A stretch of DNA of 64,000 nt from Mobula hypostoma (GCF_963921235.1 NC_086097.1:45634001-45698000), one strand, 5' to 3'. Shown: positions 1,706 to 61,000, counted from the stretch's first letter. Notes: a model not told the origin generated them from the sequence alone. Numbers and translations are program-made.

Positions 1706-2794
1706 TTGTACACTACCAGAATTAAAATATTGCAAGAGAATATGAGCTCAACTTAACACTTTTTCGATGTGCTCTACTTGAATAGTGTTGAAATACAGCT
1801 AGCCTTTACTGTCGCAGTAAGAACATCAAAGCATGATCAGGTAGAGTCAACATGATTTTATGAAGAGGAAATGTGTGACAAATCTAACAGCAATAGTATT
1901 AACAGGCTAGATAAACAGGAAACACTAGACATGGTAGATCCAGATTTTCATGGCCAGTATGTTCCTGTAAGGGGGAAATGGAAAAAAGAGAATTCCAAGG
2001 AACACTGGCTGTCACGGGATATTAAGAGTTTGGGTTCTCAGATAAGCACGTGGCACGTGTGGAGCGCTGAAAATGGGTAAGGTCCTTCAGGCACATAGAA
2101 TGAATATGGAGGTACTTAAGAATAAAGGAAGTTATGAGGTGGAAAAAAGGTCAATAAAATATTGCTGGTAGACAAGACTTGATAGAGTGTACAAAATGAG
2201 GCACAGATCAAGAGACTTTTTTTCCAGGATGGAAGTGGCTAATACAAGGGGGCATAATATTTAGATTGATCTTAAAGTAAGATTAGAGTAGTTTAAAAAG
2301 TTGAACTGGTGGCTGAAGGGCCTGTACTTGTTCTATTACTTTCCCATACAAAGCCATGCTGATTCCTCCTGATTCAACAATTGTCTATCCAGATGATAGA
2401 CTATCTCAGAATTCCCTCCAGTATCTTCCCCATTGCTGATGTCGGGCTGAATGATCTCCAGTTCCTGAATTGTCCTTGCTACTCTTTTTAACCAGACATT
2501 AGCCACTTTCTAGTCTTTGAGACTGGCTAACAATGAAGCAAAAATCTTTGCAAGGCCCTCTATAATTTCTAGTCTGGTCTCCCACAAATTCCAATTATTG
2601 ACCCTAATTCACTTTAGGGCTGAAAATACCTTCTCCCTGGCCCTCCAAAACGTCTTCACTTGTTTCCCTGAGCAACCATGATTTTCTTCTCAATAAAGTT
2701 ACTGCCTGTTATGCTGCTGGCATTTAAAGCAGCAATGAAGGTCCTCCATTTCTGCCTCTACAGTATGGTGCCAAGTAGTCTTTGGTCTCCTGCT

Positions 2795-5172: not shown

Positions 5173-5519
5173 TGTCCTCTTCCTCTGCTTTTCAGGGGTC
5201 CAATGAAATTCTATTTTGACCTGTCTTCTCATCACGTGCCTAAATCCATCTCCAACATTTCTGCTAGATGATTGTGGCCATGTCCTCTTGGTGACACTGA
5301 AGAAGTAGGGCGTGTTTGGAGATCTTTCTTGGCCAAAAAATGTGGAGGATCTTCGGGAGGCTCATGGTGCAGAATGACAACAGCTTGGCAAGGCCGTTCT
5401 CTGTCATGCTCCTCAGGAAACACGGGAGGAAGATTCATGAAAAATCCCACCCAGCTCCTGTGGTTGAAGACATGGGCAGCCCTGCTGATCTCAAAGAAGG
5501 CCTACTATGTCTCTGTTCA

Positions 5520-14200: not shown

Positions 14201-15638
14201 ACTGTTTAAGAAGGGTGGGAGGCAGCAGAAAGGAAACTATAGACCTATTAGCCTGACATCAGTGGTTAGGAAGTTGTTGGAATCGATTGTTAGGGATGAG
14301 ATTATAGAGTACCTGGAGGCAAATGACAAGATAGGCCAAAGCCAGCATGGTTTCCTGAAAGGAAAATTCTGCCTGACCAACCCACTGCAATTCTTTGAGG
14401 AAATTACAAGCAGGGTAGACAAGGGGGATGCAATAGACGTGGTGTATTTGGATTTTCAGAAGGCCTTTGACAAGGTGCTGCACATGAGGATGCTCAGCAA
14501 GATAAGAGCCCATGGAATTACAGGGGAGTTACTAGCATGGGTGGAGCATTAGCTGGTCGGCAGAAAACAGAGAGTGGGAATAAAGGGGTCCTATTCTGAC
14601 TGGCTGCTAGTTACCAGTGGAGTTCCGCAGGGGTCAGTGTTGGGACTGCTGCTTTTTTATGATATATGTCAATGATTTGGACGACAGTATTAATGGATTT
14701 GTGGCTAAATTTGCCAATGATACCAAGATAGGTGGAGGAGCGGGTAGTGTTGAGGAAACAGCTTGCAGAGAGACTTAGGTAGTTTAGGGGAATGGGCAAA
14801 GACGTGGCAAATGAAATACAATGTTGGAAAGTGTGTGGTCATGCACTTTGGTGGAAGAAATAAACAGGCAGTCTATTATTTAGATGGGGAGAGAATTCAA
14901 AATGCAGAGATGCAAAGGGACTTGGGAGCCCTTGTGCAAGATACTCTAAAGTTTAACCTCCAGCTTGAGTCGATTATGAAGAAAGTGAATGCAATGTTGG
15001 CATTCATTTCTAGAAGTATAGAATATAAGAGCAGGGATGTGATGTTGAGACTCTATAAGGCAGTAGTGAGACCACACGGAGTATTATGTGCAGTTTTGGG
15101 CTCCTTATTTTAGAAAGGATACACTGACATTGGAGAGTGTTCAGAGAAGTTTCACAAGAATGACTCCAGGAATGAAAGGGTTACTGTATGAGGGATATCT
15201 GGCAGCTCTTGGGCTGTATTCCCTGAAGTTCAGGAGAATGAGGGGGGGAATCTCATAGAAACATTCTGAATGTTAAAAGGCCTGAACAGTTTATATATGG
15301 CAAAGTTTATTTCCCATGGTAGGAAATTCTGGGACAAGAGGGCATGACTTCAGGATTGAAGGACATCCATTTAGAACTGAGATGAGGAGAAATTACTTTA
15401 GTCAGAGGGTAGTAAATCTGTGAAATCTGTTGCCACGAGTGGCTGTGGAGGCCAAAACATTGGGTGTATTTAAGGCAGAGATGGATAGGTTCTTGATTAG
15501 CCAGGGCATCAAAGGGCATGGGGTGAAAGCAGGGGAGTGGGGATGACTGGAAGAATTGGGTCAGCCCATGATTGAATGGTGGAGCAGACTTGATGGGCTG
15601 AATGGCCTACTTCTCCTATATCTTATGGTCTTAAGGTC
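11264..15638 (+). mobile_element. Near full-length CR1 LINE (5' UTR, ORF1 zinc finger + SGNH esterase, ORF2 APE + RT, 3' tail), decayed
   Basis: ORF1 remnants: CSGC..HICARC, VVVIGDSLVR, CCLPGARV, VISGLLPV. ORF2 remnants: [41 protein letters not shown]. 3' tail tcttatggtcttaaggtct. Confidence 0.93.
12213..12295 (-). mobile_element. 83-bp CR1/SINE 3'-tail insert inside CR1 ORF1
   Basis: (agaacat)n tail plus ggcccttcggcccacaatgttgtgccgac, flanked by ttag (12209-12212 and 12296-12299). Removing it restores EEFRELGRKLKSRT. Confidence 0.8.
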
Positions 15639-21575: not shown

Positions 21576-22030
21576 TTTCATGAGAAAGAAAAGTTTCTGA
21601 AGTGGATTTGTATTTTCTTTACAATCGTTGTAGCCAGTGTCACTGATAAGTTAAAACTCAGTGACATTCTGTAACCTCCAAATTCCTAAGTAGCAGGAGC
21701 TTAAGATTTTTCATATAACCCATCATTTAATAAATACTGGCATTTAGAGTATATATCTTAATGTGCCTCAGTTTCACTATAATATTTTCCTAAAACAAAT
21801 ATCAACTTGCTAATTTGCAAAGTTTATTTAATTGTTTTTACAGAGAGAGGGCAAGCTGAGGCAGGCATTTGTAGGTAAGATAGCAAACTGAGTGAACTAA
21901 TCTGGTACTTGCATAATTACATGTAAACTCAATTAAAATGTGCACAGAATTGCATGATGGTTGAGTACTGTTATTCATTTATGTCTATATTTGTGATATT
22001 AAAATAATTTTTTTTAATTTTTATTTAAAG

Positions 22031-22172
22031 CCACTGGGAACACAACTGATCAATGTTTATTGTAGCCCCAATGACCAGATGCTTTGGGCCATTGACAATC
22101 GTGGAAATGTGCATGTTCGAATTGGAATAACAGAAGCCATGCCTGTAGGAACTAATTGGGAGCATGTGCCAG
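22031..22172 (+). CDS. TECPR2: TECPR2 coding exon (3rd from last; not in the ORF track)
   Basis: T-rich acceptor ...tttaaAG and donor GTaaaa; 142 nt, phase 0 to 1. Encodes PLGTQLINVYCSPNDQMLWAIDNRGNVHVRIGITEAMPVGTNWEHVP(G). Confidence 0.96.
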
Positions 22173-24065
22173 GTAAAAGTAGAAATCATTTATCCCATAA
22201 TGTAACTGTAGTTCTTAGTTACTTCATCTGTCATCTATATCAAATCTAGTAATGTTGTGTCGCAGTAATTTTTGGAGAACATGTTTGACAATCTCTGGCA
22301 CAATTTTCCTCGAGTAGAATTTGTCAAATTATCATCCAGACCACTTCACAATTTGTCTCCCTAATTTCTTTAGGGTATTTGATTCCAAACTACCAGATGA
22401 TCTGTATGCCTTACTTTTATGTGATATTAATGCCATTCCCTCCAGTTTCCTCTGATTCTACAATCCGTTACCAACTACAGGGGCTTGCTAGGTCACAAAT
22501 GACTTGACTTGTATAAATCTGACGTTATACATATTCTCCCAAAAGTATTTTTTAATTTAGTAATAATGAAATGTTTCATGGTGTTTATTAATAAATGGAT
22601 GTAGTGTATGTTCCATCAGTTTAACTATTGATAGTGTCAATGAAATGCAAAAATTATAGCAAGTATACCTAGAAGGATAGAGTATGCATTACACAAGAAA
22701 ATGGCATTTTTGAATTATGGAGAAATCAGCTAACAGACAGTTCTCAGGAATGGAACTCTTGTGTAACCCAGGGACTGCCTGTACTATGAGGCATGATACC
22801 AATGGTGAAAACCCAGTAAGTCAGGCACATTTATGGAAAAAGAAACAGAATTAATGTTTTGAGTCCAAAACACTTTGTCAAAACTGGCCAGTTTTGATAA
22901 AGTGTGAGACATGAAACAGTAACTTTCCCTTTTCATAGACCAGCTGAGTATTTCCACCATTTTTCTATTTCATTTCAAATTTCCAGCATTTTTGTTTAAT
23001 TTTAATGATACTTTTAACAGTTTTACCATTACCTCGCCCTCCACTGTAATATCTCCAGCATTATCTAGCAAGAGATATATCTTTACTACAGCATCGTGCT
23101 AAATTGTATTTTCAGGCAACTAATTTTTTATTTACATTTCTTCTTGGCCCTTAGATTCCCATTTCACATAATTATTCTGAGTTGTTATTATCTACCATGT
23201 AAATGCCATCTCTTTTAATGTATGTTCTTTATCCAGAGCTTCAGTATTTTGTTTCCTTTAATGAACTGTTCATGAATTTTATTACATCCAATATCTATTT
23301 GAATATTTCCTCATAGTGATCTAATTCTGTTGTTTTTAATTACATTCTGGACAAGATTCCTTTTCTTTCCGTTTTTTTTCTCTTCTTGTGCACTCTCTAA
23401 TTTTGATTTAAAAACTCTTTTTCCCAAATATCTCGTGATTATTACGTTGCCAACTTCCCCTGCTTTCTTAAACAAAAGCAAGTTAAATTGTACTTCCTCC
23501 TCCACTGAAATGCAGCTGGAGGTTGATCAATAAAGATAAATGATGTTTTTAAGGAATGATTTAAATAATTGGGTCAGCAGGAGGAATTATCTGCTCCTTG
23601 GTGAGTTTGTTTTGGTTTCAGAGTTTCTTCCACAAATCCTGCAATATTTAGAAAGGCTCTAAATATAAACCAGTAAATTCTAGGCCAGTGAGACTGACGT
23701 CAGTTGTGGGAAAGTTGTTGAAAGGTATTCTGAAAGAGTCCGGATATACAAATGTTTGCATAAACTTGGACTGATTAGGAATAGTCATTTTTTTGTGCAT
23801 GGTTGGTCATGTCTAACAAATCTTATAGTTTTTTGAGGAAGTTACCAGGAAAGTGGATGAAGAGAAAGCAGTGGATGTTGTCTACATGGACTTTAGCAAG
23901 GCATTTGACAAGGTCTCACATGGGAGGCTGGTCAAGAAGGTTCAGTCACTGACCATTCAAGATAAGGTAGTCAATTGGATGAGACATCGGTTTTGCGGGA
24001 GAAGTCAGTGAGTGGTGGTAGATTGGGTACCTCTCTGACTGGAGGCTTGTGACCAGTGACTGATG

Positions 24066-24303
24066 GTCCACCGAGATGCAACACAGAGCGTCATAGGAGG
24101 TCATTCTTGCCTGTGGCCATCAAACTTTTCAGCTCCTCCCTTGGAGGGTCAGACACCCTGAGCCGATAGGTAGGTCCTGGACTTATTTCCTGGCATAATA
24201 TACATATTACTATTTAACTATTTATTGTTTTATTACTATTTGATTATTTATGGTGCAACTGTAACGAAAACCAATTTCCCCTGGAATCAATAAAGTATGA
24301 CTA
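24066..24303 (+). mobile_element. Rex1-type LINE 3' stub with 9-bp TSD
   Basis: PRCNTERHRRSFLPVAIKLF followed by AATAAA and a short tail. tgactgatg at 24057-24065 and 24304-24312. Confidence 0.75.
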
Positions 24304-25195
24304 TGACTGATGCTGAGTCCACTAGTTGTTTGTCATCTATATCAATGATCTGGATGATGTGGTCAACTAGATCAGCAAATTTGCAGATGACACCAAGATT
24401 AGGAGTGTAGTGGACAGTGAAGAAAGCTATCATGGTTTGTGGATGGATCTGGACCAGCTGGAAAAATGAGCTGAAAAATGGCAGATGGAATTTAATGCAG
24501 ACAAGTGTGAGGTGTTGCACTTTGGTAGGACCAGCCAGGTTAGATCTTACACAGTGTACGGTAGAACACTGAGGAGTATGGTAGAAGACAGTGATCTGGG
24601 CATACAGGTTCATAATTCGTTGAAAGTGATGTCACAGGTTGATAGGGTCGTAAAGAAAGCTTTTAGCACTTTGGCCCTTATAAATCAAAGTACTGAGTTC
24701 AGGAAATGGAATGTTCTGTTGAAGTTGTACAAGACATTGGTGAGGCCTAATTTGGAGAATTGTGTACAGTTTTGGTCACCCACCTACAAGAAAGATGTAA
24801 ACAAGGTTGAAAGAGTACAGAAAAAAATTTACAAGGATGTTGCCAGGTTTGGAGGACCTGAATTAAAAAGGAAGATTGAATAGGTTAGAACTGTATTCCT
24901 TAGAATATAGAAAGTTGAGAGGAGATTTGGTAGAAGTACACAAAATTATGAGGGCTGTAGATATGTAAATGCAAACAGGCTTTTTCTATTGATATTGATG
25001 TTGGGTGGGATGACAATCAGAGGTCATGGGTTAAAGAGGAAAGGTGAAAAATTTGAAGGGAACATGAGAGGTCGTGAGAGTGTGGAACGAGCTGCCAGCA
25101 CAAGTGGTGCATACAAGTTTGATTTCAACACTGAAGCAAAGTGTGAATAGGTACATGGATGGTATGGATATGGAGCATTATGGTTCCAGTGCATG

Positions 25196-27685
25196 TCATA
25201 GAAGCATAGAAAACCTACAGCACAATACAAGCCCTTTGGCCCACATTGCTGTGCCAAACATGTACTTACTTTAGAAATTACCTAGGGTTACCCATAGCCC
25301 TCTATTCTTCTAAGCTCCATGTACCTATCCAAGAGCCTCTTAAAAGACCCTATCGTATCCGCCTCCACCATCGTAGCCGGCAGCCCATTTCACATACTTA
25401 ACCACTCTCTGCATAAAAAAAACCCCCAAACATCTCTTCTGTACCTACTTCCAAGGAACTTAAAATTGTGTCCTCTCATGATACCCATTTCAGCCCTAGG
25501 GAAAAAGCCTCTGATTATTCACACGATCAATGACTCTAATCATCTTATACACCTTTATCAGGTCACCTCTCATCCTCCGTTGCTCCAAGGAGAAAAGGCC
25601 AAGTTCACTCAACCTATTCTCATAAGCCATGCTCCGCAATCCAGGCAACATCTTTGTAAATCTCCTCTGCACCCTTTCTATAGTTTCCACATCCTTCCTG
25701 TAGTGAGGTGACCAGAACTGAGCACAGTACTCAAAGTGGGGTCTGACCAAGACCCTATATAGCTGTAATATTACCTCTCAGCTCTTGAACTCAATCCCAT
25801 GGTTGATGAAGGCCAATATACCATATGCCTTCTTAACCACACAGTCAACCTGCACAGCATCTTTGACCGTCCTTTGGAGTCAGATCCCAAGATCCCACTG
25901 ATCCTCCACACTGCCAAGAGTCTTACCATCAATGCTATATTCTGCCATCATATTTGACCTACCAAAATGAACCACCTCACACTCATCTGGGTTGAACGCC
26001 ATCTATCACTTCTCAGCCCAGTTTTGCATCCTATCAATGTCTTGCTGTAACCTCTGACAGCCCTTCACACTATCCACAACACCCCCAACCTTTTTGTCAT
26101 CAGCAAATTTACTAACCCATCCCTCCACTTCCTCATCCAGGTCATTTATAAAAGTCATGAAGAGAAGGGGTCCCAGAACAGATCCCTGAGGCACACCACT
26201 GGTCACCAACCTCCATGCAGAATATGACCCGTCTACAACCACTGTTTGCCTTCTGTGGGCAAGCCAATTTTGGATCCACAAAGCAAGGTCCCCTTGGATC
26301 CCATGCCTCCTTACTTTCTCAATAAGCCTTCCATGGGGTACCTGATCAAATGCTTTGCTGAAATCTATATGCAGGACATCTACTGCTCTACCTTCATCAA
26401 TGTGTTTAGCCACATCCTCAAAATTTCAGTCAGGCTTGTAAGGCACAACCTGCCTTTCACAAAGCCATGCTGACTATTCCTAATCATATTAGGCCTCTCC
26501 AAATGTTCATAAATCTTGCCTCTCAGGATCTTCTCCATGAACTTACCAACACTGAAGTAAAACTCACTGGTCTATGATTTCCAGGGCTACCTCTACTCCC
26601 TTTTTTGAATAAGGAAACTACATCTGCAACCCCCCCACAATCCACCGGAACCTCTCCCCTCCCCATTGATGATGCAAAGATCATTGCCAGAGGCTCAGCA
26701 ATCTCCTCCTTCGCCTCCCACAGTAGCCTGGGGTACACCTCGTCCAGTTACGGAGACTTATCCAACTTGATGCTTTCCAAAAGCTCCAGCACTTCCTCTT
26801 TCTTAATGTCTATATGCTCAAGCTTTTCAATCCGCTGTAAGTCATCCCTACAATCGCCAAGGTCCTTTTCCATAGTGAATACTGAAGCAAAGTATTCATT
26901 AAGCATCTCCGCTACCTCCTCCAGTTCCATACACACTTTTCCACTGTCATACTTGATTGGTGCTATTCTGTCATGTCTTATCCTCTTGCTCTTCACATAC
27001 TTGTAGAATGCCTTGGGTTTTCCTTAATCCTGCTCACCGAGGCCTTCTCAGGGTCCCTTCTGGCTCTCCTAATTTCATTCTTAAGCTCCTTTCTCCTAGC
27101 CTTATAATCTTCTAGATCTCTAGCATTACCTAGTTTTTTGAACCTTCCGTAAGCTTTTCTTTTCTTCTTGACTAGATTTTCAATTGCCTTTATACACCAC
27201 GGTTCCTGTACCCTACCATCCTTTTCCTGTCTCATCAGAACATACCTATGCAGAATACCAGGCAAATATCCCCTGAACATTTGCCATATTTCTGTAATAC
27301 ATTTCCCTGAGAACATCTGCTCCCAATTTATACTTACAAGTTCATGCCTGATAGTTTCATATTTCCCCTTACTCCAATTAAACGCTTTCCTCATATGTCT
27401 GTTCCTATCCCTCTCCAATGCTATGGTAAAGGAAATAGAATTGTGATCACTATCTCCAAAATGCTCTCCCACTGAGAGACCTGACACCTGACCAGGTTCT
27501 TTTCCCAGTACCAGATCAAGTACAGCCTCTCCTCTTGTAGGCTTATCTACATATTGTGTCAGGAAGCCTTCCTGAACACATATGACAAACTCCACCCCAT
27601 CTAAACCCCTTGCTCTAGGGAGAGACCAATCAATATTTGGGAAATTTAAAATCACCCATCACGACAACCTTGTTGTTATCGCATA
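25196..27685 (-). mobile_element. CR1 LINE (endonuclease + RT), nested
   Basis: ORFs 26993-27655, 26748-26996, 26523-26738, 26006-26413 and 25496-25750 carry [22 protein letters not shown] and KFADD. Confidence 0.93.
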
Positions 27686-27823
27686 TCGATGGGAGCAGGT
27701 AGTTTACATGGTTTTGGCATGGATTAGGTGGAGTGAAAGGTCTGTTTCTGGGCTGTACTTTTCTATGACTAATGAAAATCTGCTTTAATATTGCAAACAA
27801 TATCTTGTCGAATTTTTTTACAG

Positions 27824-27973
27824 GTTTGCAGGCAAGTCAATTAACTGTGAGCAACAGAACAGTTTGGGTCCGTTGTTCTAATGGGGACATAGCACGTCGT
27901 TATGGAATAACGAACAAAAATCCTCCAGGCGATTATTGGAAAAAAATTCCCGGCAATGTGGCTTGCATAACCG
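27824..27973 (+). CDS. TECPR2: TECPR2 penultimate coding exon
   Basis: Acceptor ttttttacAG and donor GTaagt; 150 nt, phase 1 to 1. Encodes (G)LQASQLTVSNRTVWVRCSNGDIARRYGITNKNPPGDYWKKIPGNVACIT. Confidence 0.96.
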
Positions 27974-28544
27974 GTAAGTTGGTAGTAAATGTGGTCAAAT
28001 ACTACTTTTCCCAATAAGAATTTGTATGATGAGAAAAGAGACGGTGGATGCTGGAATCTGGCACAAATATTTTTGGTGTACATCAAGTTTTGTTTGGATT
28101 GGCATCCCTGGTCAGTCCAGCAATTATTATCCGCCTCTAATTTGAGAAATTGGTCATGAAGTGGATTTCTTGAACGTGCAGTCCCCTTGGTGAAGATATG
28201 TCACAATGCTGTTTGACAAATAGATCCAGTGACTATGAAGGAAATATATTTTAATTCCATGTCCAAATTGTGTGTGACTTCTATGGGAGTCTGTGGGTAG
28301 TGGTGTTCCCATGTGCTGCTGCCCTTATCCTTGATGATGGTTGAAGCAGCGGATTGGGGGGGGGGGGAATGTAGGTGCTGTTTGAGTAGCCTAGGTTTGT
28401 AATTACATTTCATTTTATAGGTGGTACAAAATGCAGTAACAGTGGTGAAGGAAATTAATGTTTATGGTGGTGGATTGGGTGTTGATCGAACAGGCTGCTT
28501 TGTCATAGGTGGATCGAGGTTCTTGGTGTTTTTGAGCCTCTATG

Positions 28545-29230
28545 ACACTACATGTGACACTACAGTACAGAAACAGATACTTTGCCCATCTAGTCCATTC
28601 CAAACTTAGCCGGCCTAGTCCCATTAACCACACATGGACTTTCATAACCCTCCCATCCATGTACATCCAAACTTCTCAAATATTGCAATTGTTCATGTTC
28701 AAGTTTAATTATCATTCAATCATACACGAATATACACAATCAAAACAGGTTTTCTCCGGGGTGTTAAACCCAGATCCACCACTTCTGCTAGTAGTTCATT
28801 TGACACTTGCAGCACCCTCTGAGTAATGAAGTTTCCCCTCAGGTTCCCCTCAAATATTTTGCCTTTCACTCTTAATCTATGAACTCTAGTTTTAGTCTCA
28901 CCTAACCTTAGTGGAAAAATCCAGCTTTCAGTTATCCTATCTATATTCATAATTTTGTATATCTCTGTCAAATATCCACTCATTCTCCTATGCTCCAGAA
29001 AAACTATCCTAACCTATTCAACCTTCCCTCAGGTCCTCAAGTCCAAGTCAACATCCTTGTAAATTTTTTCCATACTCTCTTTCAATCTTGTTTATACTTT
29101 TCCTGTAGGGAGGTGACCAGAGCTGCACATAATATATCAAAGTTAGCCTCACCAACAGTAAAACTTACACAACTTCAACATTATATCCCAATTGCTGTAC
29201 TCAGTACTCTGATTTATGAAAGCCAATGTG
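28545..29230 (-). mobile_element. Degraded CR1 3' fragments
   Basis: ORF 28720-28983(-) resembles the CR1 C-terminus (EIYKIM..FPLRLGETKTRVHRLRVKG..NFITQRV), with a CR1 tail near 28550-28660. Confidence 0.75.
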
Positions 29231-29676
29231 CAATGAGTCAGGTAAAATTAATGATCTTCTAGTTAGAGATCTTGTTGGAAAGGGTGATCACAGTATGATT
29301 GAATTTCCCATACAAATGGAAGGTGCCATAGTTTGCTCTAATCTGGTGTACTATATAAAACTTTTTACTATTTGTTGTGTTGCTTCTTGAAGTTTCTCCA
29401 ATCTTCTGGTTTCCTTCTACTCTTGGTGACTTTGTAGGCATGATCTCTTAGTTTGATGCTTTCCTTAGTTCTCCAAGACTGGCTCTACCTACACTTACTT
29501 GCCTGGCTTTTAATTGTAACGTACTTCTGTTGCATACAGTGAAAAATCACTTTGAAACTCCTTCCTCTTCTTCATCCACCCCTGTGTTTCCAGTCTACCC
29601 TAGTCAGCTCCTCCCTTATCACTTGCAGTCTCCCTCAATCAGTAAATTCTGTTGACATTTTGAAATGCAACACATA

Positions 29677-31109
29677 CAGTGCCTTTAAAAAGTATTCACC
29701 GTCCTTGGAAGTTTTCATGTTTTATTGTTCTACAACATTGAATCACAGTGGATTTAATTTGGCTTTTTTGTCACTGATCAACAGAAAAAGTCTCTTGTTT
29801 GTCAAAATAAAAACAGATCTCTACAAAGTGATCTAAATTAATTAAAATATAAAACACAAAATAATTGGCATAAGTATTCAACACCCTTTAATATGACACA
29901 CCTAATTATCACTGGTGCAGCCAATTAGTTTTAAAAGTCACATAATTAGTTAACTGGAGATCTGTTTTTGGAGACCTATGTGCAGTCAAGATGTTTCAAT
30001 TGTCTGTAGTAAAGACACACCTTTATCTGGAAGGTCAAATTGGATGAGTCAGTATCCTGGTAAAAACTACACCATGAAGGCAAAAGAACACTCTAAGCAA
30101 CTCCACAAATAGGTTATTGAAAGGAACAAGACAGGAGATAGATACAAGAAAATTTCCAAGTCACTGAATATCCCATGGAATATAGTTAAGTCAATCATCA
30201 AGAAATGGAAAGAATACAGCACAGCTGTAAATTTCCCTAGAGCAGGCCGTCCTCAAAAACTGAGTGACCATGAAAGATGGGGAATAGTGAGAGAGGCCAC
30301 CAAGAGTCCAATGACGACTCTGGAGGAGTTACAAATGTCAGTGGCTGAGATGGGAGAGACAAAATGTTGCCAGCTTTATGGGAGAATGGCATGAAATATC
30401 GGCTAGAGTTTGCCAGAAGGCATGTGGGAGACTGAAGTCAGTTGGAAGAAGCTCCTATGGTCTGATGAAACCAAAATTGAGCTTTTTAGCTATCAGACTA
30501 AATGCTATGTTTGGCATAAGCCGAACACTGCACATCATCAAAAACACACCATCCCAACCATGAAGCATGGTGATGGCTGCATCATGCTGTGGGGATGTGT
30601 CACTGTAGCAGGTCCTGGAAGGCTTGTGAAGGTAGAGGGTAAAACGAATGCAGCAAAATACAGGGGAATCCTGGAGGAAAATTTGATGCAGTCTTGGAGA
30701 ACTGCGACTTAGGAGAAAATTTCTTTTCCAGCAAGACAATGACCCTAAGCATAAAACCAAAGCTACACGGGAATGGCTTAAAAACAACAAAGTTATTGTC
30801 CTGGAGTGGCTAAATTAGAGTCCAGACCTCAATACAATTGAGAATATGTGGCTGGACTTGAAAAGGGCTGTTCACTCATGATTCCCATGCAATCAGAATG
30901 AGCTTGAGCAGTTTTGTAAAGAAAAATGGGGGAAATTGCCATGTCCAGTTATGCAAAGCTGATACAGACCTATCCACACAGACTTAAGGCTCTAATTGCT
31001 GCCAAAGGTGCATCTACAAAATACTGATTTGAAGGGGGGTGATTATTTATGCATTCAGTTATTATGTGTTTTATATTTGTAATTAATATAGATCACTGTA
31101 GAGATCTGT
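29677..31109 (+). mobile_element. Tc1-family transposon; left TIR intact, right TIR truncated, transposase (30074-31027) pseudogenised
   Basis: TA|CAGTGCCTTTAAAAAGTATTCACC start and inner DR at ~29870. Motifs GRPQKLS, LWSDETKIELF, KHGDGCIMLWG, FQQDNDPKHK, SPDLNTIENMW. Partial mirror of the left TIR at 31031-31109. Confidence 0.92.
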
Positions 31110-31229
31110 AACAAGAGAAAATCTGCAGTCACTAGCAATCCAAGCAACAAAATGCTGGAGGAACTCAGCAGGCCAGGCAGCATCTATGGAAAAGAGTACA
31201 GTTGATGTATATAGTTCGGGTCTCTTTAC

Positions 31230-31825
31230 TTGAGGGAAGTTGTACAGGTTTTGGAGGCAGTGCTGTGGAGGTTCACCAGGTTGATTCTGGAGATGGGGGG
31301 GAATTAGCTTCTAAGGAGAGATCGAGTTGCCTGGGACTTTACTCACTGGAATACAGAAGAATGAGAAGGGGTCTTATAGAAACATTTAAAATTATGAAAA
31401 AGATTGATAAAATAAAGGCAGGGAAGTTATTTCCATTGGTACGTGAAATTAGAACTAGGGTACATAGCCTCAAGATTTGGAGAAATGGATTTAAAATGGA
31501 GATGCGGAAAAACTGCTTTCCCAGAGAGTATCTGTGGGATTCTCTTCCCAAGTGACATAGCAGCTACCTCATTAAATATACTGCATAATAAGACACAGTA
31601 CCATATAGGAAGGTGGTTGGGAAACAGAAATAAGAGTACTTAGCTTTGTATTAGCTCAATAGTATTAAGCAGTATTTGGTAACTGGAAAAACATAATATG
31701 CTTAATGGTTATCGGGAGAAGGCGGGTAGGTGGAGCTGAGTCCATGGCCAGATCAGTCATGATCATATTGAATGACAGAGCAGGCCTGATGGGCCATTTG
31801 GCCTATTTGTGCTCCAATGTCTCAT
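31230..31825 (+). mobile_element. CR1 3' fragment (preceded by a Penelope pLTR piece at 31110-31205)
   Basis: LGLYSLEYRRMRRGLIETFKIMK..LFPLV followed by a CR1 3' UTR. Confidence 0.8.
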
Positions 31826-32125
31826 TCATGTTTTAGTGTTTGAGGAGAAATATCACTTACCCAGGCACTGAATTGCCCTTGTAGCCATAATATTCATATG
31901 GCTAGTCCAGATGAGTTTCTGATCATTGGTAACCCACACCCTCAAGATGTTCATGATGGGAGCTCTGAGTGATGAATATACCAATGTACAGCAGTAGCTA
32001 CTGTGCATTTAACATATCAATAATATCTAGGTAGTGTGTGTGTGTGTGTATATATATATTTTTTTTTAAGTTGTTGGTACTTTATGTGTGTTGCTTGAAA
32101 TTCCAGCATCTGCAGATTTCCTCGA

Positions 32126-32332
32126 GTTTGTGTATATATTGTTTGATTAAGCATTCTTTGTTTAAATAATTCATTATGGCTATATGTACGAAATACAGGA
32201 ATGGTATACATTATCACGCCACCATGTTATATGCATGCACCTTGCTTAAAGCAAAACCGAAGTTAGATGCATTATTCCCGGCTCTGTGTTTTTGCTTTGT
32301 TAGTTTAATATTTTGAAGGTACAAAGCATACC
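32126..32332 (+). mobile_element. Solo LTR related to the LTR at 49272-49492
   Basis: Its reverse complement aligns by eye with 49272-49492 (tatg.tttgta.cttcaaaa; taacttcg..ttt.ctttaag; aattatttaaacaaagaa; tacacaa). Confidence 0.65.
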
Positions 32333-42430: not shown

Positions 42431-42584
42431 CAGGAACCCAGCGCCTGGCTGCAGAGGCAGCGTCGAGTCCCGGGAGAGCGGGTTTCCCGGACCAGCAGCA
42501 ACAACAGTTGCCAGAGAGAGAGACAAGTGCAGATTTGAGGAGAGCTTCGCGTCACCTTGAGAACGGCTGTAAGAGCGCGTCAGC

Positions 42585-43487
42585 ATGCCTTGGGACCTGG
42601 GCAGCCCTCCCCACGGCCGGGACTACCGCTGCCAGAAGCGCTGCAAGAAATCGTCTTTCGCCTTCTATCAGGCGGTGCGGGACCTCCTGCCTGTCTGGAT
42701 CCTGGAGGAAATGAGGACCATGGAGGCGTTTCACTGGGAGGAGGGCGGCCGTATGAGCGCCTACTCGCCGTCCGAAGCCCTGCTCTACGCTCTGGTGCAC
42801 GACCACCAGCGCTACGGCCAGTACCTGCTAAACCAGCACCCGCGGGCAGCGCTGGCCGTGCCCAGCGACAGCTTTTGCTGCTGCCGCTCCTCGGCACCGC
42901 ACCTCGCCATGGCCGTACGCTACAACCGCGTCGCCACCCTGGCACACCTCCTGAAGTGCCTGCGGGACTGTCCTGGCATCGACCGCTCCGACTACATCAA
43001 CCGCAGGGGCTGTGTGCATGTGGAGAGCGGCAAAACGCCGCTGCATGTAGCTTGCGAGCTGGCAAGAGCCGAGTGTTTGATTTTGCTGCTGACGCACGGC
43101 TCCTCTCCCTACATCACGGACTGCGAGGGTAACACACCGCTGGACACGTTACTCCTGCAGCTGTGTGACAGCCGGCTGGAGATGCAGAGAAAGCACGCCT
43201 GCCTACATCGTCTCCTGCTTTTCATGCCGGAACTGAAATTTAAAATGAAGTCGGCGCTGAGAAGCAACGCCGGCCTCTGGCAGGGTTTGCTTTCTCCGGA
43301 CATCTTTCAGTGGCTCTCGGGCTGCAGTCCGCCGCCGCTCTTTGTGAAGGCCATGCAAACTTTAATCGCAGCCATCGCTCCAGAGAGATTCCCAGAGGGG
43401 CTGCACGAATTGCCTATATCCCACCTACTTAAACCTTTGGATTTCAAACTGACCATGGAGGACACTGCCCAATCAAACTATAAGTGA
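42585..43487 (+). CDS. ANKRD9: Ankyrin repeat domain-containing protein 9 (300 aa, uninterrupted CDS)
   Basis: MPWD..CKKSSFAFYQAVRDLLPVW..AYSPSEALLYALVHDHQ..AVRYNRV, ankyrin motifs GKTPLHVACEL and GNTPLD. CpG-rich, AATAAA at 43513, and adjacent to TECPR2 as in human. Confidence 0.96.
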   Translation: MPWDLGSPPHGRDYRCQKRCKKSSFAFYQAVRDLLPVWILEEMRTMEAFHWEEGGRMSAYSPSEALLYALVHDHQRYGQYLLNQHPRAALAVPSDSFCCCRSSAPHLAMAVRYNRVATLAHLLKCLRDCPGIDRSDYINRRGCVHVESGKTPLHVACELARAECLILLLTHGSSPYITDCEGNTPLDTLLLQLCDSRLEMQRKHACLHRLLLFMPELKFKMKSALRSNAGLWQGLLSPDIFQWLSGCSPPPLFVKAMQTLIAAIAPERFPEGLHELPISHLLKPLDFKLTMEDTAQSNYK

Positions 43488-48890: not shown

Positions 48891-49271
48891 CTGTCCCAGT
48901 ACAAGTGCTGTGTTTTCTTAAAATATTACTCTTCTGAACTTAAGTCTTGTAGGGTGTTTGACTGAAGATCTCCAACCAAAAATTACCATATACCTCCAAT
49001 ATGACATAGAAAATGCAACCAAACTAGGCCAAGGTTGAAAAACGTACTGGCTTATGCATGAAAATTGCAGTTAATCAGATAGCATAGCTCCTTACAATAG
49101 TTTCAAAAGGAATATAAATTTCTTCCTTTCTTCATGTCAGCATTTATCCCTTAATTCACACCAAAAATTACACAACTATTCTTTGTGATATTTTGTCATT
49201 TTGTTTATCTCATACAAGCTGAGGCTGCATTCTAAAATAATTAATATGGAAGTACTTTTGAATATCTTGAG

Positions 49272-51021
49272 TGTTATGTTTTGTAACTTCAAAACACTAA
49301 ATTAATTCAATGAAAAACATGAGAGTCTGGGATTTGCAAGTTTAACTTCGAGTTTACTTTAAGTGAGGCATGATCGTATATCACTTGGTAGCTTTGACAT
49401 GGACAATTAAAATATTTTTACATGTAACCAGTAATTAATTATTTAAACAAAGAAGAATGCTCAAATATTATTGAAATATTAAATACACAACACTTTTCCC
49501 TGCTTAGCTATAAACTCCAACTCAACAGGGTAATACATCTTAACTATATACACAGTCTACTGTATAATACTATGTAGACATCAATAGCATAGTAAATTTG
49601 AAATTGTCCCATTCAGACCTAAAGACTTAACTGCTGTGGGGGATTTCTTACTCTTGTGTGATATTGTCTTTCCTGACAAGGTGGGGGGTGGGTAGGGGGT
49701 CACTCTGCTTGGCAGTTGAGACTTGTGGCTGTGAAATAATCTCAAGTTCTGGGGCCTCCCCCGTGGTGGTTGTAGGAGTTGACTCTGGGACTGCAGGAAG
49801 TGGTTCTAACAGTAGTAGCCACTTTTCTTCCTTTCCTGCTACTAGTTTGTGCACCTTGATCTTGGGAAGGTGCATTTAGTTCAATGGAGCATTCTCCTAT
49901 TAATCCTTCTATTACTCCTTTTACGATCTGATCTCTCCTCTTGGTTTCCTCATCTACAATATCATCTGACAAATCTTCTGTTTTCACATCTCCACTGCTT
50001 CCTTTCTTTTTGGTCTTCCATTCATCCAGCTGGGCTTTGGTCTTTGCAGCTACCTTTGCAAGCAGCTTTTTGTCTCCCACTTGAAGTTCGTGCAATAACC
50101 TTAATGCATACAGAGTAGATGCTGGTTCTTTATAGTCACAAAAGCTGAATGCTTTCAACTTCTGCGGAACTCCTTGAACTCTCTTCCTGCTTAAAACCAA
50201 GCCGCATTTCACAAATAACTGCCTGATTGACCTATCAGAAGCTTCCTCAGATACGTTGCCTACAAAAACTGTAGGAGTCGGACCAGTGCTTTTGTCATGT
50301 TCACGATTCCTCTGAGCAGCATGGGCCCTTCCTCGGTCCAATACGCTTTCCAGCCAGAGGATCAGAGATTGGCACCGTCACCTGTTTGTCCTCTGTTGAG
50401 CAATGGTTCATTGTGTCTGACATGGAGGTAGTTCTCGCATCATCCACTACTTCTCTTAATACTCTTTCAGTTGACTTTTTTGCAGGGGATGGATCTCCAA
50501 ATAAGTTGTAGTTGTCTCAGCCAATCACGGCCTCACTATGCTGGTCCTTCTGTTTTTACCACCTACAAGCTCAATGTGGCTTGTTGGTTGTTGTATTTCA
50601 CTGTCACAGATAACATTCTCACAGGAGTTCTCTTTCTTCCAGTATAAGTCCTTAGTCGGATATCTGAAGGTTTCAGTTTAGTGTCTTTGAAATGCATCTC
50701 AAACTCGTGACTGGCACAGCTGAACCAGTGTCTAATTCCATTTTAATTAAATTGCCGTTCACTTCTGGTGTAAACCATATTGCATGTCTATTGTTAATCT
50801 TCACATTGTAAATCGCAAGGCTACATAATCCGGTATCACTCACCCCATTATCAGGTTTTTCATCAACAGTATGCAAATTAGTGCTCTTTCTGAAACTGCA
50901 AATAGACTTTTTAACATTTTCTCTTCCCTATACAGATCATTTATTTTTGTCTGTCTGGCATACTCTTTGTACATGTCCTACTTTGTTGCATTTTCTGTAA
51001 GTTTCACCTTTAAATCTGCAC
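49272..51021 (-). mobile_element. Non-autonomous Gypsy-type LTR element: gag knuckle, protease, captured RBM25 segment, integrase tail, PPT, 3' LTR
   Basis: LTR TGTT..AACA at 49272-49492, with purine tract GGGAAAAG adjacent on minus. Gag CRFKGETYRKCNKVGHVQRVC at ~50958-51020; protease MELDTGSAV..LRTYTG..GRDWL at ~50500-50780; integrase-like tail ending ERQYHTRVRNPPQQL at ~49625-49820. Confidence 0.85.
49823..50381 (-). pseudogene. RBM25: Processed RBM25 fragment (RRM and following helix) embedded in the LTR element
   Basis: GPTPTVFVGNVSEEASDRSIRQLFVKCGLVLSRKRVQG..KAFSFCDYKEPASTLYALRLLHELQVGDKKLLAKVAAKTKAQLDEWK..DEETKRRDQIVKG..ELNAPSQ is colinear with recalled human RBM25. No introns; one frameshift near 50330. 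Confidence 0.9.
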
Positions 51022-51027
51022 TATTTG

Positions 51028-52790
51028 TGTTGTGTTTGTAAAACCATATATCGATTAAATAAGACCACACACGCGGAGATGAAGTTAACTGGTATATTCA
51101 TTTTGCAGGGAGAGAGAGGGAGAGAGCAACCAATCAAATGCACATAGTTAAGTTATCAGTCAATACGTTGTGCTAAGAGGTGTCATTGCACTAAAAGAAA
51201 TAGATCCATACATTACAATTCAATCTTTAGAGTAATGTAACATAAAACTGTATATGTAATAAAACATTAAATTTCCCTTTAACAGACCATATTCAAATAC
51301 ACATGCTTTCACATAACAGCCTATAACTAACTTCGGTATACTAAAGATTCATTCTTTTGGGTAGCGCTGTTTCTTTCAGGATAGCACCTATGGACCTGTG
51401 GAGTGGTATCAGGTTTGGCAGGTGTCTTGTCTAAGACAACGTTCTCAGTCACCAGTGTCACATTGCTGTGAGTGACATGATCATCACTGGGAGGTAAGTC
51501 CAGTGACTATAACGCGTCCATCTTGTTGGATGCATTCGACTCAGGAGTGTTCTTCGGCTGAGCATCCAGTATCTGGTCCACATGACGTCTCTATGTCTTG
51601 ATCTCCAACATCCGCTGTGTACATCAGTGGTCTGGTTCTTGTAGCTATCTTACCAGGTGTTCACTTGTCCTCTCAGTAACTTCCTGTACAACCTCGAAAC
51701 TCCTTGCTGCTTCACCTGGCAACTGGCTGAACTGTTTATTCTGTACTTCCCTCTGTCTGTCTGGTTTCCGGAGGTCAATGCAAGATCTCAGACTCCCGTT
51801 CATGCAGGTGTTGATTTATCATTACATGAACAGAGTTATATTGGTATGAAGGGTTGATGGGGCTAAGAACTAGGCATTATGGCAAGACCTGTGGGATAAT
51901 GGGCAAAAAGGGAGACACCTTTATAAAACTATTGGATTGATGGGAGAAGGGGGTAAAACAAGAAGGGAAAGAATTATATTGACTCTGCTTAGAACTGGGC
52001 ATACTATGCTTAATTATTTCTTATATCTTGTTGGAAACATCACTCCGGGCTGTGTAGGTTTTGTCATCATTATGAAACAGTTGAGCACATTCTATCACAA
52101 TATGAAGCATATAACATTGAAAGAAAGCAAATGCAGGCATTTAGGGGTTGATAGCTTTCATTTTAAAACTTTACAATCTGTAGGGCTTTTTGGTAAAATT
52201 TAGTTTTCACTTGATAAAGAACTAATAGGGGTTTTATTTCCCAACTCTCTACACTTTCTCCAGTCCAGTTGGTGGCGATAATGCACCTTAAGGTTGGACT
52301 ACCAACCACTATCAAAAGTCAGAAGAAGAAGAATGAACAGAGTTGTCCATCTTGCACTCTAGAGGAATGTCCTCCTTGTCCGTAGCGTTAATGGACTTCT
52401 TAAAGGTTTGGACAAACCTTTCAGCTGGGTGCTGAGGAGATGACCTGAAATGCTTGTTGCCATTTTTCCTCATGAATAGTCTGAACTCTTCTGACATGTA
52501 CTGTGGTCTGTTGCTACTCACAATTTATTCAGGTAAGCCATTTCTGGAGAAGATAGTGCCCAAAGTGGAAACAATCCTTTCTGAGATAGTTAATTCCATT
52601 GGTATGACTTCAGGCCATTTCCAATGAGCATCCACAGCAATCAGAAACATGGAGTTCATGAATAGCCCAGCAAAGTCAATATGTACTCTTTGCCATGGTG
52701 ATGACAGCCACTCCCACAGGTGTAATGGTGCCTGTGGGGATGCATAATGAACCTTGTGGCATCCCAAACAGCTTTTGGTCAAGTCTTCAT
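51028..52790 (-). mobile_element. Second Gypsy element: integrase core, PPT and 3' LTR (51028-~51266)
   Basis: PWQRVHIDFAG..FLIAVDAH..WPEV, FSRNGLPE, AERFVQTFKKSI and RRHVDQIL; purine tract aaagggaaa before the TG..CA LTR. Confidence 0.85.
51838..52332 (+). mobile_element. I/Nimb-type LINE 3' fragment with (GAA)n tail and 12-bp TSD
   Basis: LTLLRTGHTMLN..ETVEHIL; terminal stem-loop gttggtggcg..ccaac; TSD atgaacagagtt at 51826-51837 and 52333-52344. Confidence 0.75.
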
Positions 52791-53319
52791 CTGTCTCTTT
52801 GTTCTACATTAATGATTTGGATGAAGGGACTGAATAGATTGTAGCCATATTAGGCAAGATGCAAAAATTGCTTTGTTTTGCTATGCTGTTTGAAGTGTTG
52901 TCGATAAACTTGGGAGTAACTACACAACCATATCCTTGTTCTCCTCATAGAGTACAGTTCTGTATCACTCCTAAAATAGCACTTTTCCTTCTGCTATATC
53001 TGTGATTCCTTTGGCTGATGCAGCACAGACAAGTACTTAGAATCATATAACCATTTACATTTAAAGCACTCCAGGTTTCCTAGAAAATCAGTGCTATATT
53101 TAGAAATACAGGAATGGTTTCTATAAATTACATGTAAACATCTTCAAAACACTAGCATTTATTGTTTAATAATTTCACAGGAGAAAATGAACATTGTGTT
53201 TCAAAGCTTTAAACAATGGTATATTAAGCAATGGAATTTTTTGCTTTCAATGTACTTTAGATAGGTGACGTCTCCATTAACTCTCAGCCACATTGCCAAT
53301 GTGAGACTTAAAGCATACT

Positions 53320-58099: not shown

Positions 58100-61000
58100 G
58101 AAGCAAAAGAGAGAGCAAATATTACAAAAAATTAGTTGGAAGGTAAAGGATTTAGAAGCTTTTAAAAACCAACAGAAGGCAACTAAAAAGCCATAAAGAG
58201 AGAAAAGATGAAATACGAAGATAAATAGTCAATAATACAAAAGAGGATACAAGACTTTTGACAAGATACCAGACAAGAGACTGCTTAACAACGTAAGTGC
58301 CCATGGTATTACAGCAAAGAGTGAGAGTAGAGAGAGCCTATTCTGGTTGGCTGCCAGTGACTAGTGGTGTGCTGTAGGGGTTGGTGTTGTGTCCGCTTCT
58401 TTTCACATTATGTGTCAATGATTTGGATGAAGGAATTGATGGCTTTGTGGCCAAGTTTGCAGACAATACGAGGGATAGGTGAAGGGGTGAATAGTGTTGA
58501 AGAATCAAAGAATCTGAAGAAAGGACTTGGACAGATTGGCAAAATGGGCAAAGAAGTGGCAGGTGGAATATATTGTGGAGAAGTGTACTTTGGTAGAAGG
58601 AATAAAGGCATGGACTATTTTCTAAATGGGGAGAAAATTCTAAAATCAGAAGCACAAAAGGACTTTGGAGTCCTTGTGTAGGATTCCCTGAAAGTTAACT
58701 TTGCAGGTTGCGTTGATAGTAAGGAAGGTGAATGCAATGAGAGCATTTGTTTCTTTCTTTCTTTTTAAATCTTTTTATTGAGTAAGTATACAAAAAAGGT
58801 AAGCCATATAAACATTAATACAATGTTAAAGTATAATAAAATTCCAAAAGATAACAATACCAAAAAGAAAATACTACAATGTAATTTAAGCATAAGAAAC
58901 CAAGATAACATAATAATATACTAAGTTTTATATATATCAATGGAAAAAAAGAAAAAAAAAAACCCCAAAAAAAACCCACCGTGCAACTAACTAAAAGCAA
59001 GGCAAAGCAATGGGCTAACTTGAAACCAAACAGAGTTAAACTTAAAATCACGTCCTCAATCCCGACCTCCATTAAAACAGTGAAAAAAAAACAAGAAGGG
59101 TAAATATTACATTAAATGAAAATATCGAATAAAAGGTCCCCAAATCTGTTCAAATTTAAATGAAGAATCATAAAGGTTACTTCTAATTTTCTCCAAATTC
59201 AAACATAAAATCGTCTGAGAAAACCAAAAAAAGGTAGTTGGAGCATTAAGCTCTTTCCAATGTTGTAAAATACATCTTTTCGCCATTAAAGTAAGAAATG
59301 CAATCATTCTACGGGCTGAAGGGGAAAGATTACTAGAAATTTTAGGTAGTCCAAAGATAGCAGTAATAGGGTGAGGAGAGATATCTATATTTAATACCTT
59401 AGAAATAGTATTGAAAATATCTCTCCAAAAAGTTTCCAAAGTAGGGCAAGACCAAAACATATGAGTTAAAGAGGCTATCTGCCCCGAACATCTATCACAG
59501 AAAGGATTAATATGCGAGTAAAAACGCGCTAACTTATCTTTGGACATATGTGCTCTATGAACCACTTTAAATTGAATTAGGGAATGTTTAGCACAAATAG
59601 AGGAAGTATTAACTAATTGTAAAATCTGCCCCCTATCATCCACAGAAATGGTAAGCCCCAATTCCTGTTCCCAATCTACCCTAATCTTATCAAATGGAGC
59701 TTTCCTAAGTTTCATAATAATATTATAAATCATAGCCGATGCACCTTTCTGACATGGATTAATGCAGTTAAGATGTTTTTTTTGCCAAAATTTTTATATG
59801 TGTTTCAGGCATTACCAATTTTCGTTCCTAAATCTTTTTTTGATAAAGTTGACTCTAAAATTTCTTCATTTATTTGGCAGAATAAGAATCCGAGACTGGG
59901 TAAAATACATTTACAGAAAGCTAAGAGAGATGGAGGTTTAGCGTTACCTAATTTTAGATTTTATTATTGGGCTATTAATATTCGACATATGAAATTTTGG
60001 TTACTTGACCGGGACATACTATCTATTCCTAAATGGGTAGCATTGGAATTACAATCTGTTCAGGGTTATACACTTGGTTCTATTTTAGGTTCCTCTCTTC
60101 CTTTTGATTCGAAACGCCTTAAGCAGGTCTCTAACCCGATAGTTAAATATGCTTTGCGCATTTGGTTTCAATTCAGAAAATTTTTTGATCTTAATCAATT
60201 CGGGTTAGCGATTCCTATTTTAGGTAACATATTTTTTCCTCCCTCTTTTACGGATCGCGCTTTTCAAACTTGGAAGACTAAGGGTATTTTACGGTTTTTG
60301 GACTTATTTTTAGATGGTTCCCTTATGTCTTTTGAACAATTATCTAATAAATATAACTTATCAAGAATACATTTTTTTAGATATTTACAAGTTAGAAATT
60401 TCCTAAGTACTATACTTTCTTCCTTTCCAATGCTTCCTCCTATATATATTTTAGATTCGATAATTAACCTTAATCCATGTCAGAGAGCATTTGTTTCGAA
60501 AGGACTAAAATACAAAATTAATAATGTAATGCTAAGTCTTTATAAGGTACTGGTCAGATCACACTTGGAGTATTGTGCAACACTGGACCCCTTATCTCTG
60601 AAAGAATGTGCTGGCATTGGAGAGGGTCCAGAGAAGGCTCACAAGAACGGTCCTAGGAACGAAAAGGTTATCAGATGAGCAGCTATTGAAGGCTTTGGGC
60701 TTGTACTCAGTGGAATTTAGAAGAATAAGGGAGGATCTCATTGAAATCTATTGAATGCTGAAAGGCCTAGATAAAGTGGATGTGGAAAGGATGTTCCATA
60801 TAGTGGGGGAGTCTTTGACCAGAGGGCACAGCCTCAGAATTGAGGGATGTCCATTTGGAACAGAGATGAGGAAAGATTTATTTAGCCGGAGGATGGTGAA
60901 TCTGTGGAATTCATTGCCACAGCCAACTGTGCAAGCCAAGTCATTGGGTATATTTAAGGCGGAGGCTGATAGATTCTTGACTAATCAGGGCTTCAAAGGA

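Follow-up and report, generated by a model that had tools for sequence, protein, structure and literature searches.

Long terminal repeat (LTR)-mediated retrocopies are chimeric and have discontinuous sequence of an LTR retrotransposon on their flanks (Tan et al. 2016, PMC5131818). The same source gives instances of non-autonomous LTR elements that are mobilised in trans, such as MaLR by MERVL. Here, we analysed a stretch of 64,000 nucleotides (nt) of Mobula hypostoma (NC_086097.1:45634001-45698000, hereafter the window) and searched the species' own genome (3.48 Gb). We show that positions 51020-49272, on the minus strand, are a decayed, 5'-truncated copy of a non-autonomous Ty3/Gypsy family, in which an intronless fragment of the host gene RBM25 stands between the protease (PR) and the tail of the integrase (IN). 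Comparisons with published systems, here and below, are with the cases laid out in those parts of the cited papers on which we draw.

The family resembles LTR-mediated retrocopies (PMC5131818) in that an intronless host fragment lies inside an LTR element, with element sequence on both sides, in that there is microsimilarity at a fusion point (here the 3' one), in that it acts as a non-autonomous LTR element with an in-frame join to the parental frame, and in that its copies share the switch points, as in secondary retroposition as a unit. It differs from them in scale, with thousands of candidate loci here and one to few insertion sites in the fly cases of that source. It is also old (about 11-15% from the host exons), occurs in several cartilaginous-fish genomes and has kept gag and protease. 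Maize Bs1 (PMC5131818, PMC13317346) shares with it host exon fragments between LTRs, common switch points and secondary retroposition. Yet, Bs1 has 1-5 copies with pieces of three genes, whereas in the RBM25 family six consecutive exons of a single gene are present in thousands of copies, and the host is a vertebrate. The mechanism and the non-autonomous behaviour of such chimeras are already in print (Tan et al. 2016, Bs1, oncogene capture); what is notable here is the copy number, the age and the preserved isoform. We found no published description of an RBM25-carrying retrotransposon in open-access papers and bioRxiv.

The RBM25-bearing family and its copy in the window

Both junctions between RBM25 and element sequence recur across the genome. 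In a first look, the 636-nt RBM25 piece gave 3,408 candidates, a probe for the 5' junction 2,430, a PR probe 5,295 and a shark RBM25-like protein (P0124) used as query 5,555, a range over the searches of 2,400-5,500 candidate loci. The 39 scored non-self matches of the RBM25 piece lie on many contigs, and all of them cover at least 580 of the 636 nt at 81-84% identity and span the end from RBM25 into the IN tail; the 5' junction is spanned by 39/39 scored non-self matches as well. When seven loci were fetched with their flanks, both junctions proved common to all seven and the alignment ran through them without a break.

Full copies found elsewhere in the genome are LTR elements. Four of them (L009, L011, L012 and L014) measure 2.7-3.4 kb, with L012 at about 2.96 kb and the family as a whole at roughly 2.9 kb; other copies reach about 1.1 kb further 5' than the one in the window. 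Direct repeats of 200-265 bp stand at their ends, the two LTRs of a pair being 74% identical in L012 and 76% in L014, and the LTR ends TGTTGTG...ACATAACA are found in nine aligned LTRs. A TGGTGA resembling a primer binding site (PBS) lies 0-1 nt past the 5' LTR in three of the four, L011 being damaged there, and a purine tract abuts the 3' LTR (the window equivalent is 49505-49493). Target site duplications (TSDs) of 5 bp match at five of five positions in L014 and in L011, at four in L009 and at three in L012, i.e. 17/20 overall for a chance expectation of about 5/20. This check covers the four full copies; the window copy has lost its 5' end. The 5' part of L012 encodes a Gag with two CCHC knuckles, and its gag open reading frame (ORF) matches the Gypsy polyprotein P0121 (precomputed domains gag-asp_proteas, RVT_1 and RT_RNaseH) with E 4e-31.

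The copy in the window reads, on the minus strand from 51020 to 49272, as zinc knuckle, protease, reverse transcriptase (RT) stub, RBM25, IN C-terminal tail, polypurine tract (PPT) and LTR. Its parts, with one further sequence of the family, are as follows.

50958..51020, minus strand: terminal part of gag, including the second CCHC zinc knuckle, whose first Cys is now Tyr (sequence read, and tblastn with P0121)
50999-50958, minus strand: the knuckle proper, a remnant
50488..50957, minus strand: retropepsin-type protease region, with stops and frameshifts (tblastn with P0121, ORFs)
50732-50721, minus strand: DTGS motif of the protease
Near 50500, minus strand: protease end, GRDWL..L(D/I)W
50440..50487, minus strand: PR-to-RT stub, aligned by eye to the '...LQVVLARHPTVF' region of P0121
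50430..50439, minus strand: 5' junction zone, the last 10 nt of a small host exon (host exon end against seven aligned copies)
50382..50429, minus strand: 48-nt cassette exon, in frame, copied from host RBM25 (host comparison)
49841..50381, minus strand: intronless copy of host RBM25 exons A-D, from the RRM through a helical region to a Lys-rich patch
49822..49840, minus strand: 3' junction zone, a purine run (alignment of host, the relative L057 and seven chimeric copies)
49651..49821, minus strand: IN C-terminal tail, the last ~57-62 pol codons, with the stop at 49650-49648 (L057 ORF alignment)
49493..49505, minus strand: PPT, directly 5' of the 3' LTR (aligned LTR borders of five elements)
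49272..49492, minus strand: 3' LTR of 221 bp, with TG...CA ends (LTR alignment)
32128..32330, plus strand: solo LTR of the same family, 71-74% identical to the LTRs of four full elements

In tblastn searches, residues 216-316 of P0121 align to window positions 51020-50703, and P0121 aligns again to 50676-50488 with 48% identity (E 9e-14). The element's own pol sequence ends in the stub at 50440..50487. The RBM25-derived stretch that follows is about 618 nt long, from 50439 to about 49822. The ORF in the RBM25 frame, 50377-49742 from stop to stop (211 aa), matches Pfam RRM_1 with E 1e-8, and its database matches among longer proteins are all RBM25 (n=207, top E 1e-58, 71% identity). This frame reads about 25 codons into the IN tail before its stop at 49744-49742, the tail itself being out of frame relative to the RBM25 part.

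We also placed on the window, at a likeness of at least 80%, the contigs of four DNA-type runs from four organisms (A-D). Loose-end clusters with varied flanks mark 49272 and 49492 in the four runs. Loose ends at 50487 show that the stub is locally divergent in the window copy, and those at about 51020 mark its 5' truncation, where other copies go on with the first zinc knuckle. The element's 5' half is absent from the rest of the 64-kb window.

A reading made from the sequence alone (the sequence-only reading) had described this order of parts on the minus strand, and the parts and their coordinates hold. It had called the copy decayed, with its 5' half outside the window, as it is, and had placed a solo LTR at 32126-32332, two positions wider at each end than what we find. 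Its RBM25 piece of about 560 bp was rightly named, RBM25 being the best match, and was slightly shorter than the 618 nt found here, which also take in the 48-nt exon and the 10 nt before it. The same reading took the locus for a member of a non-autonomous gene-transducing LTR family instead of a LINE retrocopy; the junctions common to 7/7 loci, the paired LTRs and the TSDs bear this out, and the 39/39 and 39/39 scored matches that span the junctions show that these are not specific to the locus.

Two subfamilies split just past the 3' junction (window 49812-49842), ...GTGTCCAGAGCTG... versus ...GTGGCTAC.GCTG..., with L010, L012, L013 and L014 on one side and L009, L011 and the window copy on the other, which explains the contig loose ends at 49812. 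PR matches stopping 57 nt short of the junction had been taken for autonomous elements; the one fetched, L056, is a chimeric copy in which the break reflects local divergence.

The captured transcript, its junctions and an autonomous relative

Host RBM25 lies on the minus strand of the same contig as the window copy (G000:C1, ~99.79-99.84 Mb). The captured segments are contiguous in the host transcript: 10 nt of a small exon, the 48-nt cassette exon and exons A-D of 171, 58, 161 and 177 nt. Six consecutive host exons are represented and five exon-exon junctions are crossed, so that introns of ~5.8, 3.4, 1.7, 2.8 and 4.8 kb are missing from the copies. A poly(A) is absent: the 3' end of the insert is the Lys-codon purine run of the gene itself, which leads directly into the IN tail. 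No duplication flanks the RBM25 insert, and both its ends lie inside coding sequence. The sequence-only reading had noted no introns, no poly(A) and no evident TSD for the RBM25 piece, and each of these points stands; comparison with the parental gene confirms the loss of introns. RBM25 proteins combine an RRM, an ER-rich region and a C-terminal PWI domain. The exons for PWI are found at the host locus only: the insert comprises the N-terminal part of RBM25, with the RRM and up to the Lys patch, and is an RBM25-derived fragment, not an RBM25 gene.

The 48-nt exon has a polypyrimidine-AG acceptor and a GTAAC donor in the host (G000:C1:99832633-99832586). This exon is real: the annotated Heptranchias perlo 'RNA-binding protein 25-like isoform X1' (P0124) begins with its translation and continues through the same exons. 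P0124 opens in the 48-nt exon and, past exon D, terminates in intron sequence that it reads through; the extent of this short isoform is roughly that of the captured stretch.

Identity to the host exons is 84-89% (Kimura two-parameter distance, K2P, of 0.10-0.15; nine copies), and among the copies it is only 75-84%. This pattern, closer to the host than to each other, fits a burst from a host-like founder. The sole family sequence in 80 kb of the host locus is a solo LTR (G000:C1:99876648-99876893) in opposite orientation, which precedes the first coding exon by about 36 kb.

On the element side, a search with the IN-tail peptide gave 9,932 candidates, and 19 of the 150 scored had open frames of at least 120 aa, longer than chimeric copies allow. 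One of them, L057, with an open frame of 224 aa, has an integrase core and C-terminus, followed by PPT and LTR. The L057 ORF matches the C-termini of polyproteins carrying RVT_1, RNase H, Integrase_H2C2 and rve, and from the purine run onward its DNA is 76-81% identical to the chimeras. Against a representative protein library, the best identity of the L057 integrase ORF was 49%, with no close full polyprotein. Of the 24,011 candidates for a generic Gypsy PR-RT query, 30 loci were fetched, none of which was similar in DNA to the chimera's gag-PR. A 320-nt stretch guessed to be the RT end of L057 is unrelated sequence.

L057 allows the 3' join to be placed. When the host, L057 and seven chimeric copies are aligned, the Lys-codon purine run of exon D resembles a purine run of L057 at the same point; the chimeras match the host up to this run and the element beyond it. 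The crossover lies inside this microsimilarity, 0-5 nt short of the exon D donor. Template switching at the 3' junction is thereby supported, as judged from the alignment, by purine-rich microsimilarity with L057.

At the other end, host homology seemed at first to begin, in 7/7 copies, exactly where the 48-nt exon has its acceptor, before an extension of 10 nt was found. L013, one of the seven aligned copies, matches the end of the preceding host exon at all 10 of these nt, and L009, L010, L012 and L014 match it at 9/10 positions; the 10 nt are partly deleted in L011 and carry two changes in the window copy. The match to the preceding exon shows that the captured RNA was normally spliced RBM25 mRNA and that the 5' junction lies inside an exon. 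A splice-made chimera with both junctions at exon borders had been considered and was dropped in view of the 3' purine crossover and the 10-nt exon extension.

The origin of the chimera and the fate of its insert

We consider it very probable that the founder arose by template switching between Gypsy RNA and spliced RBM25 mRNA and was then amplified in trans as a non-autonomous family. A reverse transcriptase copying Gypsy RNA would have switched onto the spliced RBM25 mRNA and then back, so that some 3.3 kb of pol (RT, RNase H and the greater part of the integrase; a length estimated with polyprotein P0121 as ruler) would have been exchanged for about 0.62 kb of RBM25. Such a chimera would keep what it needs in cis (both LTRs, PBS, PPT and 5' leader) together with gag and protease, and the enzymes of autonomous relatives would have copied and inserted it many times. 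Double template switching had also been the proposal of the sequence-only reading, and the 3' purine microsimilarity with L057, which shares IN tail and LTR with the chimeras, speaks for it. The helper may have been an element of the L057 type. As in the MaLR/MERVL pair (PMC5131818), the LTRs are common to the family and its autonomous relative, RT and IN are lacking, and the non-autonomous form outnumbers the helper among the best matches; unlike in that pair as set out there, the RBM25 family has retained gag and PR and includes a piece of a host gene.

Several points weigh against this account. No Pfam match exceeded the threshold for the PR, gag and IN ORFs of the window copy, L009, L011, L012, L056 and L057; since these decayed ORFs stay below threshold, the assignments of gag and PR rest on the alignment to P0121. 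The candidate counts are rough first-look numbers and not curated copy numbers. L057 is the single autonomous relative that was inspected, over its 3' 2 kb. Microsimilarity is seen at the 3' junction alone, and template switching at the 5' junction is what we infer. Lastly, in the 80 kb of host locus there is no source insertion in or near the RBM25 introns.

Of the other accounts, the one that survives best, unlikely as it is, holds that the RBM25 RRM was no passenger and that an expressed Gag-PR-RRM fusion aided the spread of the family or served the host. The reading frames make it conceivable. In L009 one frame runs through the PR end and the RBM25 part, interrupted between the two by a single stop, and in L012 and the window copy the knuckle and PR are in one frame; given this shared frame in copies, a Gag-PR-RBM25 fusion was possible in the founder. 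Yet, an in-frame join is expected by chance in one case out of three. The family is also far more numerous than the LTR-mediated retrocopies described in the part of Tan et al. 2016 (PMC5131818) considered here, e.g. Bs1 with its 1-5 copies, and RBM25 is its best conserved part between copies, with identities of 81-84%, compared with 77-82% in PR and 71-77% in the LTR.

The coding sequences themselves tell against such a role. No open copy was found among the 150 scored (protein identity 64-85%, longest frame 381 aa, 13/150 stop-free within the match): all 150 are broken. We computed pairwise Nei-Gojobori Ka/Ks for eight copies (28 pairs), excluding the truncated L056. The copy-to-copy ratio is 0.69 in frame, close to the 0.68 and 0.60 of shifted control frames, and there is no sign of constraint between copies. 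The host-to-copy ratio of 0.34 (controls 0.98 and 0.78) is low, as would be expected from purifying selection on the host gene alone. The decay of the copies is old and neutral. The ancestral Gag-PR-RRM fusion put forward by the sequence-only reading thus keeps its frame compatibility (L009, and gag-PR in L012) and finds no open copy (0/150), and its dN/dS test for constraint came out negative, copy-to-copy values equalling the shifted controls. It is improbable that a fusion was once expressed and that its RNA-binding domain, or thousands of RBM25-homologous transcripts, drove amplification or fed back on host RBM25 or splicing. If this were true, a retrotransposon would have gained fitness from a captured splicing-factor domain. 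We favour instead that the RBM25 piece was a passenger and brought no functional gain.

An origin of the oncogene-capture type is also quite doubtful, and a little more so. An intronic Gypsy element upstream would have been transcribed by read-through, a cryptic donor would have been spliced to an RBM25 exon, and a single switch would have restored the 3' end. Read-through followed by splicing is a described route of retroviral oncogene capture (PMC4276931), and the apparent start of host homology at the 48-nt exon acceptor in all seven copies initially seemed to agree with it. But the 10 nt before that exon are those of the preceding exon end, exactly in L013 and with one mismatch in four more of the seven, which puts the junction not at a splice acceptor but within that earlier host exon, by 10 nt or more. 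Nor is there any element remnant in 80 kb of the host locus, save the solo LTR about 36 kb upstream. The family does share with transducing retroviruses, as presented in the part of that paper used here, spliced host sequence in place of a viral coding part, dependence on a helper and a possible Gag-fused product; it differs from them by a 5' junction in an exon, by being a germline Ty3/Gypsy element without env and by holding a splicing-factor fragment without sign of selection.

That a LINE-made RBM25 processed pseudogene landed once in a dead Gypsy element, with segmental duplications as look-alikes, is extremely improbable and in effect already refuted: LINE reverse-transcriptase fragments are plentiful in the genome, several of them within the window, and the insert is, like such a pseudogene, an intronless copy of host mRNA, but it has no poly(A) and no long target duplication or other flanking duplication, stops in the middle of the coding sequence and moved with the LTR element, as seen in thousands of dispersed loci on many contigs with both junctions and in whole elements with LTR pairs and 5-bp target duplications.

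Synonymous distances are 0.29 from host to copy and 0.24 from copy to copy, and they suggest that the burst came fairly soon after capture. Slow substitution rates are usually assumed for cartilaginous fishes. By such rates the age of the family would be on the order of 10^8 years, an order of magnitude and not a computed date.

Occurrence in other organisms, surroundings and meaning

The family is not confined to this genome. In the four runs placed on the window, 21,813-32,204 contigs per run fall on the element, and the 3' flank at 48900-49235 stands at single-copy depth. Among the contigs listed, the 3' junction is spanned by some from each of organisms A, B and D, and by some from C that have a 401-letter insertion; the 5' junction is bridged by one listed contig, from organism D. 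Over the flank (48900-49271), organism B shows 98% identity and organism D about 92%. A contig of another organism (X5 record 17), considered as a bridge of the LTR end, reaches only 30 letters into the element and was left uncounted. In Hypanus sabinus, the annotated protein P0208 begins with the stub, the 48-nt exon and exon A, with 68% identity over 80 aa to the ORF of a copy. Its gene model joins these 80 aa of stub and RBM25 start to a GTF2IRD2-like, transposase-derived body, and probably reflects either an artefact of annotation or a transposon-on-transposon chimera.

The window is mostly made of repeats. The truncated copy is immediately preceded, on its 5' side, by the 3' portion of another Gypsy element (51021-52803, minus strand), with an integrase core at 52803-52312, an R-x-YP-x-R tail and an LTR-like end near 51025; its integrase (52803-52312) shows only 41% identity to that of the chimera's autonomous relative. 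Fragments of LINE-type reverse-transcriptase and endonuclease ORFs are found at 2939-5210 (minus), 13726-14552 (plus), 24470-27658 and 59107-60678, with an RVT_1 match of E 3e-11 for 3865-4563. An uninterrupted 304-aa frame with ankyrin repeats (42573-43487, plus; Pfam Ank_2, E 4.5e-7), in a GC-rich stretch amid repeats, is probably a single-exon host gene.

An LTR-mediated capture of a host gene in a vertebrate can thus found a very successful non-autonomous family, whereas the published cases considered here have one to few copies. Its copies preserve an old RBM25 mRNA isoform, including the 48-nt cassette exon still annotated in the shark protein P0124. They also pollute gene annotation, as in the stingray protein P0208, which starts with the element's junction. 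Finally, the family provides a dated marker for comparing the genomes of cartilaginous fishes.

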